Source of the DNA: a virus
Taxonomy: Duplodnaviria > Heunggongvirae > Uroviricota > Caudoviricetes
Virus record (IMG/VR): IMGVR_UViG_2537561709_000011
Strand: one strand, 5' to 3'
Length of the DNA: 8,832 nt
Part shown: positions 6,101-6,460 of the stretch, piece after piece
Layout of the letters: every line of letters starts with the position of its first letter
Numbering within the stretch: position 1 is the first letter of the stretch
Made by a program: the position numbers and the translations under genes
Notes under the pieces: model-generated
Told to the model about the DNA's origin: nothing
The model's input: only the letters and a program-made list of their open reading frames with translations
Database searches by the model: none

Positions 6101-6193
6101 AAGGCGGTTTATGACCTCGGGAAAAAAGCGGCAGCGGACTTTATGCAACAGCAGGCCCGTGATGGTGGTCGGTTAAGTGGAGCATATCGGTAA
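3128..6193 (+). CDS. H: Tail tape measure protein, lambda H-like (1021 aa from ATG 3128)
   Basis: GGAGG 8 nt upstream of ATG 3128. The N-terminus MDQIANLVIDLGIDAAEF resembles lambda gpH (…DLVVDLSLDAARF). The central region is long, Gln/Ala/Arg/Glu-rich and coiled-coil-like. The C-terminus INNDGTNGQIGPAALKAVYD…RDGG matches my recollection of the lambda gpH C-terminus. The ORF-track start at 3098 is a TTG and is unlikely. Confidence 0.92.
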   Translation: MDQIANLVIDLGIDAAEFKNEIPRIKNLLNGAASDAERSSARMQRFMERQTQAARQTMQAASSAATAASVHAQTVEKSAQAHERMAREVEQTRQRMEALSQKMREEQAQAMALAEAQDKAAAAFYRQIDSVKQAGAGLQELQRIQQQIRQARNSGGIGQQDYLALISEVTAKTRVLTQAEEEATRQKVAFIRQLKEQATRQNLSSSELLRAKAAQLGVSSAAEVYIRKMEQAGKATHSLGLKSAAARQEIGVLIGELARGNLGALRGSGITLANRAGWIDTLMSPKGMMPGAVIGGIAAAVYGLGKAWYDGQKEGEEFNRQLSLTGHYAGVTAGQLWTLSRAISGNGITQHAAAGALAQVVGSGAFRGNDIGMVARAAAQMERSVGQSVSDTINQFKRLKDDPVNAAKALDNELHFLTATQLEQIRVLGEQGRSSDAARIAMSALAEETGRRTADIDNNLNALGSTLKYLSDLWSRFWDAAMNIGREDSLDEQIAALQEKVSRAKRLPWTASSSQVEYDQQRLNDLQEKKRQKDLQDAKEQAERNYQEQQKRRNAENAALNRMNETEAARHQREIARINAMQYADQAVRDAAIQRENERYEKALASGKKKTRETRNDEATRLLLQYSQQQAQVEGQIAAARQSAGIATERMTEARKQLLALQQRISDLDGKKLTADEKSVLARKDELIQALTLLDVKQQELQKQTALNELKKKTIQLTSQLAEEERAQRQQHDLDIATVGMGDQQRQRYQVQLSLRQKYQQQLEQLRRDSEQKGTYNTDDYRKAEQALTESLNRQLNENRRYWQQLEVVQGNWKNGVLRAFQDFTVDADNTAETAEQVFSSAFSNMGNGLATFVTTGKLNFKSFTSSVLSDMAKILAQATMMKSIKGIGSVLGFDLSSLSLNANGGIYQSADLSRYSGTVVNRPTFFAFAKGAGVMGEAGPEAILPLRRGADGKLGVVADIGGSGMAMFSPQYNIEINNDGTNGQIGPAALKAVYDLGKKAAADFMQQQARDGGRLSGAYR

Positions 6194-6402
6194 TGGAGAC
6201 GTTTCACTGGAAAGTGCGCCCGGATATGAATGTGTATGAGCGTCGTGAGGGCGCTGGTGATGGTGTTCGTCGAAAGGTGGCGCGTTATGGCCTGCCTGGT
6301 CATTCTGTTGTGGTGCGTGACGGTGAGGGCCGGAACGGTGCAATTGACGGCGAATGTATACGCATCAATGCTACAGATGTGGTGCTGGTGGAGGGGCAAT
6401 AA
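6193..6402 (+). pseudogene. M: Minor tail protein M-like remnant (69-aa ORF; only the N-terminal ~14 aa and a short VRRKV segment resemble lambda gpM, which is 109 aa)
   Basis: ATG 6193 overlaps the H stop (TAATG). METFHWKVRPDMNV resembles lambda M (MKTFRWKVKPGMDV), but the rest diverges and the ORF ends early at 6400-6402, directly abutting the non-phage repeat region. No L, K, I or J follows. Confidence 0.5.
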
Positions 6403-6460
6403 AAAACCCTGAAAGATTTCTCCGGGTGCTCCAGTTGCACGTGGCAGAAATCCTTCAGGG
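6401..6460 (-). terminator. Candidate intrinsic terminator for minus-strand transcription: the unit-1 long hairpin followed on the minus strand by UUUUUU (+ strand aaaaaa 6401-6406)
   Basis: A 14-15 bp stem (with internal hairpin) immediately followed by a 6-U run on the minus strand. On the + strand the same hairpin has no T-run after it. Confidence 0.45.
6407..6460 (-). repeat. Stem-loop unit 1: outer inverted repeat 6407-6420/6447-6460 (14 bp, 1 mismatch) enclosing inner hairpin GTGC-tccagtt-GCAC (6426-6440)
   Basis: Read directly from the sequence. The mismatch is A/C on + and G-U on -. Confidence 0.7.

Follow-up and report, generated by a model that had tools for sequence, protein, structure and literature searches.

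Why does a lambdoid tail module with intact genes from Z through H break off within the first codons of M and give way to genes of an unrelated kind? The window in which this arrangement occurs (the whole stretch of DNA analyzed, 8,832 nucleotides) is identical to KB004216.1 (8,832 bp; assembly GCA_000316725.2, E. coli 97.1742) and contains no N. It is a complete short contig of a draft genome and not a slice of a longer replicon. A search of the literature by strain name returned nothing relevant on 97.1742. Judged by comparison with closed genomes, the window is composed of three unlinked pieces of E. coli O157:H7, one from a prophage (segment A), one from a chromosomal island (segment B), and one from the virulence plasmid (segment C) (Table 1). 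A base-by-base alignment showed 0 mismatches to the closed O157:H7 genome Rafaela_II for segments A and B and 0 mismatches to pO157 Sakai for segment C. The source loci of the three segments continue normally past the breakpoints in these reference sequences, where M through J, the 128-aa gene, the 149-aa gene, and pO157p46 are all intact. The broken ends of the pieces are intragenic in four of four cases, falling within M, the 128-aa gene, the 149-aa gene, and pO157p46. No att site, IS end, or repeat was found at either join. The contig ends share only 1 nt of homology and have no terminal overlap, which gives no sign of a circular molecule.

Table 1. Coordinates of the segments, junctions, and genes in the window, with the matching locus or the basis of each assignment.
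Feature	Position	Strand	Matching locus or basis
Segment A, Sp3-type lambdoid tail module	1-6234	+	Rafaela_II chromosome, 3.87 Mb
Head decoration, Gifsy-2-type protein, Z, U, V, G, T, H, then M codons 1-14	1-6234	+	ORFs and Pfam
Chimeric 69-aa ORF (EKW82619.1, WP_001511172.1, EC971742_0885)	6193-6402	+	Sequence comparison
Junction 1, overlap AATGTG (6 nt)	6229-6234		Common to prophage M gene and island gene
Segment B, internal fragment of P4-like island	6235-8101 (6229-8106 with overlaps)		Rafaela_II chromosome, 0.164 Mb
3' end of 128-aa island gene	6235-6402	+	Sequence comparison
PerC	6849-7142	-	Pfam
ProQ/FinO-domain gene	7162-7578	-	Pfam
SSB	7595-8044	-	Pfam
Last 21-22 codons of 149-aa gene	8041-8106	-	Comparison with intact island gene
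Junction 2, overlap TCACA (5 nt)	8102-8106		Common to island and pO157
Segment C, internal fragment of pO157 leading region	8107-8832 (8102-8832 with overlap)	+	pO157 Sakai 45343-46073
Last third of 453-aa DUF3560 gene pO157p46	ends 8436	+	pO157 comparison; Pfam
97-aa ORF, internal-ATG call within pO157p46	8143-8436	+	Comparison with pO157
Methyltransferase gene pO157p47, 5' part, cut by contig end	8483-8832	+	Comparison with pO157

The prophage that carries the sequence of segment A is Sakai Sp3, which differs from the window by one mismatch over positions 2293-6234. Positions 1-6237 are 98.5% identical to phage mEp460 and its relatives and 100% identical to O157:H7 chromosomes. Z, U, V, G, T, and H, the last of which encodes a 1021-aa tape measure, are intact and 100% identical to annotated intact O157:H7 prophage genes, which bears out the statement in the preliminary description of this DNA that Z through H are intact. 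Two further statements made there also hold: L, K, I, J, and the fiber genes appear nowhere in the window in either the ORF listing or the Pfam calls, and an unrelated module directly follows the tail genes, with island DNA from 6235. In the closed Rafaela_II genome, segment A runs straight into an intact M (109 aa), followed by L, K, I, J, Lom, and tail-fiber genes, and M to J come after an identical H gene in closed O157:H7 genomes. An H protein identical to that of the window is indexed in 7,090 blocks of the gene collection, with M and L following it in the 4 places listed. As an aside on annotation, T, in the G-T frameshift region (2827-3156), is called as 65 aa in the public collection versus 109 aa in the closed genome.

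Segment B spans 1.87 kb, from inside the 128-aa gene to inside the 149-aa gene, and shows 0 mismatches to E2855 as well as to Rafaela_II. Positions 6221-8106 match the chromosomal island at 99.9-100%, and PerC, ProQ/FinO, and SSB are annotated there. The island lies between yicC and dinD, megabases from the prophage in closed genomes, and is P4-like in carrying an integrase, a primase/D5-type protein, an Icd-like protein, and an AntA/AntB antirepressor. Neither of the two cut island proteins matched NCBIfam or PHROGs. Segment C starts at approximately codon 343 of pO157p46; over positions 8102-8832, the window is 100% identical to F-type plasmids including pO157, and its single-copy plasmid sequence runs for 731 nt before the contig stops.

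The two junctions were then compared with the source sequences on either side. At junction 1, the sequence is unambiguously prophage up to base 6228 and unambiguously island from base 6235, and the overlap becomes a match of 8/9 bases when positions 6226-6227 are counted. The preliminary description had placed the breakpoint probably within 6235-6402; the actual breakpoint, at 6229-6234, lies at or just to the left of that interval. Junction 2, at which the microhomology is 5 nt (6/7), was absent from that description. In simulations of random blunt joins on the source loci, overlaps of at least 6 nt arose with P = 0.0016 and overlaps of at least 5 nt with P = 0.0053, and the joint chance of both overlaps under blunt joining is ~1e-5. 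The junctions are microhomology joins and not blunt ligations; because the overlaps exceed those expected by chance for random blunt joins, simple blunt-end ligation chimeras are excluded. The two unrelated joins lie just 1.9 kb apart. A 147-aa minus-strand ORF at 8041-8484 is a spurious read-through over junction 2.

The composition of the 69-aa ORF follows from the position of junction 1. It consists of M residues 1-14 (METFHWKVRPDMNV) in frame with residues 74-128 of the island protein WP_001241339.1 (128 aa). Residues 1-14 are identical to M of Sp3/mEp460-type phages, and residues 13-69 are identical to the C terminus of the island protein, the N-V codons being common to both sources. The C-terminal 55 residues are thus 100% identical to a protein unrelated to M. 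This ORF had been described as a divergent 69-aa remnant of M, and it does have a gpM-like start after which similarity is lost; its remainder, however, is not diverged M sequence but fused island protein. PHROGs matches residues 1-15 of the ORF only, and searches of Pfam and NCBIfam gave no match, whereas the intact M from the closed genome matches PF05939 (Phage_min_tail) at 1e-39 over residues 2-108. The ORF therefore falls outside the phage minor tail protein M family (PF05939), the full-length domain of which has ~108 residues. Its position is likewise not that of M in the order H-M-L-K-I-J: H precedes it, but the next genes are PerC, ProQ/FinO, and SSB. Given the identical, unrelated C-terminal 55 aa and the lack of a PF05939 match, a short and diverged yet functional member of the M family is ruled out. 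Among 153 billion gene positions, the exact 69-aa fusion protein occurs on 1 contig only, and the other members of its 90% cluster are island-protein fragments or alternative-start calls, none of which starts with M sequence. The ORF is most likely an accidental in-frame fusion without tail-protein function.

We looked for the same arrangement in other genomes. Among 5,426 complete E. coli genomes, none (0/5,426) has a place covering 80% of the junction-spanning probe for either junction, and the two sides of each junction map to separate places wherever they occur. Neither junction was found in PLSDB or in phage records. Metagenome and viral contigs contained none of the exact 40-mers over either junction, and species-representative genome contigs contained none over junction 1. 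In the collections searched, the junctions are therefore unique to one assembly, the pattern that marks a chimeric contig, and are not inherited by related strains, as the junction of a defective prophage would be.

Three perfectly matching unlinked loci, intragenic ends, and singleton junctions make a chimeric contig the most economical reading. We consider it probable that KB004216.1 is such a contig, produced as an artifact of assembly or library preparation, and not a degenerate prophage. The preliminary description had named an assembly artifact as an outcome that would overturn its interpretation, and with three perfect-match pieces and unique junctions, this has become the favored reading. 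The abrupt end of the tail module is most likely a property of the sequence record and not of a prophage, and we infer that the junctions are absent from the genome of the strain or confined to a negligible subpopulation. Pieces of 6.2 kb (prophage), 1.9 kb (island), and 0.7 kb (pO157) would have been linked in head-to-tail order through the overlaps of 6 nt and 5 nt, and these joins most likely arose outside a living genome. Candidate routes are template switching or short-homology annealing during library preparation or amplification, and over-permissive joining during assembly. In the real prophage of the strain, H would be expected to be followed directly by M, L, K, I, and J, the order seen in all closed O157:H7 genomes examined.

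We considered whether the limits of the pieces could reflect repeats that confuse an assembler. On the prophage side, an assembler-graph artifact at repeat boundaries is unsupported, as the listed contigs with H run past the breakpoint and the H/M/L sequence has only 2 places. Specifically, the contigs listed with an identical H extend 370-830 nt further right, into L, and the one contig measured (13.2 kb) reaches ~6 kb further left than the window contig. In each O157 genome, a 900-nt probe over the end of H, M, and L finds just 2 places, and megablast with the M-L-K-I block finds 8-13, a count that includes low-identity copies; the Sakai Sp4 paralogue is only 76% identical, with similarity starting in L. 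No phage or E. coli homology boundary was found at M codon 15, and partial 149-aa island proteins and partial forms of pO157p46 gave no hint that a boundary recurs at junction 2. Since the contig ends and the A-side breakpoint lie off repeat boundaries, the limits of the pieces look arbitrary rather than biological. Against an artifact, the consensus is error-free over all three pieces, and a single poor read accordingly cannot be the source of the contig. The chimeric-contig reading is weakest on the length of the overlaps, which fall far short of those that assemblers normally use, and of normal k-mers, yet exceed what blunt ligation would leave. Because their lengths fit neither process, some physical molecule or a non-standard joining step is needed.

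The same microhomology is also left by genuine illegitimate recombination or by template switching in vivo. We therefore weighed a real but private rearrangement in 97.1742, present clonally or in a sizeable subpopulation, in which an MMEJ/MMBIR-like event fused the prophage, the island, and pO157 and that copy lost its tail-tip genes. Such an event is unlikely in our view, yet it deserves to be taken seriously. In its favor, both junctions show microhomology well above chance, 6 nt (8/9) and 5 nt (6/7), as illegitimate recombination and template switching typically leave; the consensus of the contig is clean; and each of the three partners is a mobile or replicating element, of which induced cells could contain several copies. 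We also count in favor of a real event that microhomology-type joining is reportedly promoted by an IS-excision enhancer encoded by O157:H7. Against it, the genomes and assemblies searched contain the junction nowhere else, a clonal chain of chromosome, chromosome, and plasmid needs extra compensating junctions, and the stop of the contig 731 nt into single-copy plasmid sequence is left unaccounted for. More generally, for a viable clonal genome to acquire two joins that connect three replicon types within 1.9 kb, an implausible series of steps would be needed.

A further point in favor of a real event is that the island breakpoint lies beside a site used by an insertion sequence. In another E. 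coli lineage, ISEc8 (2,442 bp) is inserted in the 128-aa island gene, and its target duplication, GATTAATG, is at the window-equivalent of 6225-6232, which is 1-4 nt from the island side of junction 1 (loci L010-L020). This nearness hints at a non-random site that is possibly fragile or accessible. Dozens of draft contigs start at the ISEc8 insertion point in the island gene. All contigs with ISEc8 at the site or starting there (11/11) carry 6475T, whereas the window carries 6475C, like the two IS-free genomes compared; the strain therefore probably lacks the ISEc8 insertion at the island site, and with it an IS end there. Nor does ISEc8 lie next to the M breakpoint, in either orientation, in complete E. 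coli genomes. Both observations weigh against a real rearrangement, and we treat the nearness of ISEc8 to junction 1 as an unexplained coincidence. The more specific version of a real event, a genuine two-step template switch or end joining guided by microhomology that linked the prophage, the P4-like satellite-type island, and the virulence plasmid, with the island break at the ISEc8-targeted site, appears to us slightly more doubtful still.

ISEc8 could also have created junction 1 more directly. In this scenario, recombination took place between ISEc8 copies located in M and the island gene, after which the IS was excised in vivo between similar target duplications or was dropped by the assembler. 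The insertion in the island gene of another lineage, with GATTAATG 1-4 nt from the junction, is consistent with such a history, as are the similar flanks (ATGAATGTG versus ATTAATGTG) and the partial M proteins (P0020, P0030) that begin exactly at residue 15 on 7 other contigs. We nonetheless judge IS-mediated adjacency very improbable: the 6475T allele of all 11 ISEc8 contigs is not that of the window, no complete E. coli genome carries ISEc8 directly beside the M breakpoint in either orientation, the window contains no IS sequence, and nothing comparable is seen at junction 2. The partial M proteins suggest that in other genomes M may be interrupted at the same spot (codon 15, window-equivalent ~6235) by something else. 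One 103-aa M variant carries a foreign N terminus, MFITNTVCL, fused at residue 16.

The reading proposed at the outset, a recombination or deletion junction of a defective lambdoid prophage or stable mosaic element that had lost its tail-tip genes and kept a short diverged M, accords with the intact Z-H genes and with a sharp junction to unrelated DNA near the start of M in the record, but it is the least credible of all, as the C-terminal 55 residues of the ORF are identical to an island protein and show no Phage_min_tail match, the DNA next to it comes from the interior of the island and then from the interior of pO157 and is neither prophage nor attachment-site or chromosomal flank, the joins are singletons inherited by no related genome searched, and closed O157:H7 genomes have intact M to J after the identical H.

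The island itself showed features that are separate from the question of the joins. The island (L005 8200-18750) carries three PerC-family genes, a ProQ/FinO-domain protein, and SSB in one minus-strand block, of which 6849-8044 lies in the window. The ProQ/FinO-domain protein is called as 77 aa in the public collection versus 138 aa by ORF and by the RefSeq annotation of identical sequence. An array of hairpins at ~6402-6680 (L005 ~9180-9460) is native to the island and was not made by the join, and an RNA-chaperone gene (ProQ/FinO) thus adjoins a structured RNA-like array. The array folds far better than shuffled sequences on either strand (z = -6.9 and -5.9). It comprises four units of ~62 nt that share one fold, in which an outer stem is followed by a 4-bp apical stem closing a 7-nt loop; the loop is conserved as AACUGGA on the minus strand, and compensatory changes are present in 7/12 pairs among the four copies. 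On the minus strand, U6 follows the last hairpin, and the arrangement resembles an intrinsic terminator downstream of the PerC/ProQ/SSB unit. Rfam gave no match on the hairpin region at E <= 1. The array beside the ProQ/FinO-domain gene may deserve separate study. The convergent transcription from the tail operon into a minus-strand RNA locus that the preliminary description had envisaged is relevant only if the join exists in the cell.

Taken as biology, the truncated tail is most probably not real. KB004216.1, WP_001511172.1, and any "truncated tail module" or "short M variant" deduced from them should not be counted as biology until the junctions are verified, and a useful outcome would be to flag both the contig and the RefSeq protein as chimeric. 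Were the joins real, they would represent a multi-partner, microhomology-mediated rearrangement of prophage, island, and plasmid in EHEC, of modest interest for genome plasticity, and a single private event without evident function.

With respect to lambda gpM and PF05939, the first 14 residues of the 69-aa ORF are identical to M of the Sp3/mEp460 type and the other 55 are unrelated. Truncated tail modules are known from cryptic or defective lambdoid prophages, for example the remnants in K-12. The window resembles these in that its series of tail genes stops before the tip and fiber genes; in K-12-type remnants, however, different strains inherit the same junction, beyond which lies prophage or chromosomal flank, whereas the junction of the window is a singleton and the identical module is complete in closed O157:H7. 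Specialized transducing lambda phages (gal/bio) are formed by illegitimate recombination at short homologies, to which rearrangements of the MMEJ/MMBIR type are comparable. As in these phages, a few bases of homology connect phage and non-phage DNA in the window, and the phage genes beyond are lost. Transducing lambda, however, joins adjacent chromosome, whereas the partner here lies megabases away, is 1.9 kb long, is itself joined to a plasmid, and is known in this arrangement from the record alone. Chimeric draft contigs and misjoins are alike in being short contigs of perfect but unlinked pieces with intragenic junctions unique to one assembly. The window differs in its overlaps, since the usual assembler overlaps are far longer than 5-6 nt and blunt-ligation chimeras have no microhomology. 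In template-switch chimeras from amplified libraries, by comparison, short microhomology at the joins is expected, just as it is seen in the window.
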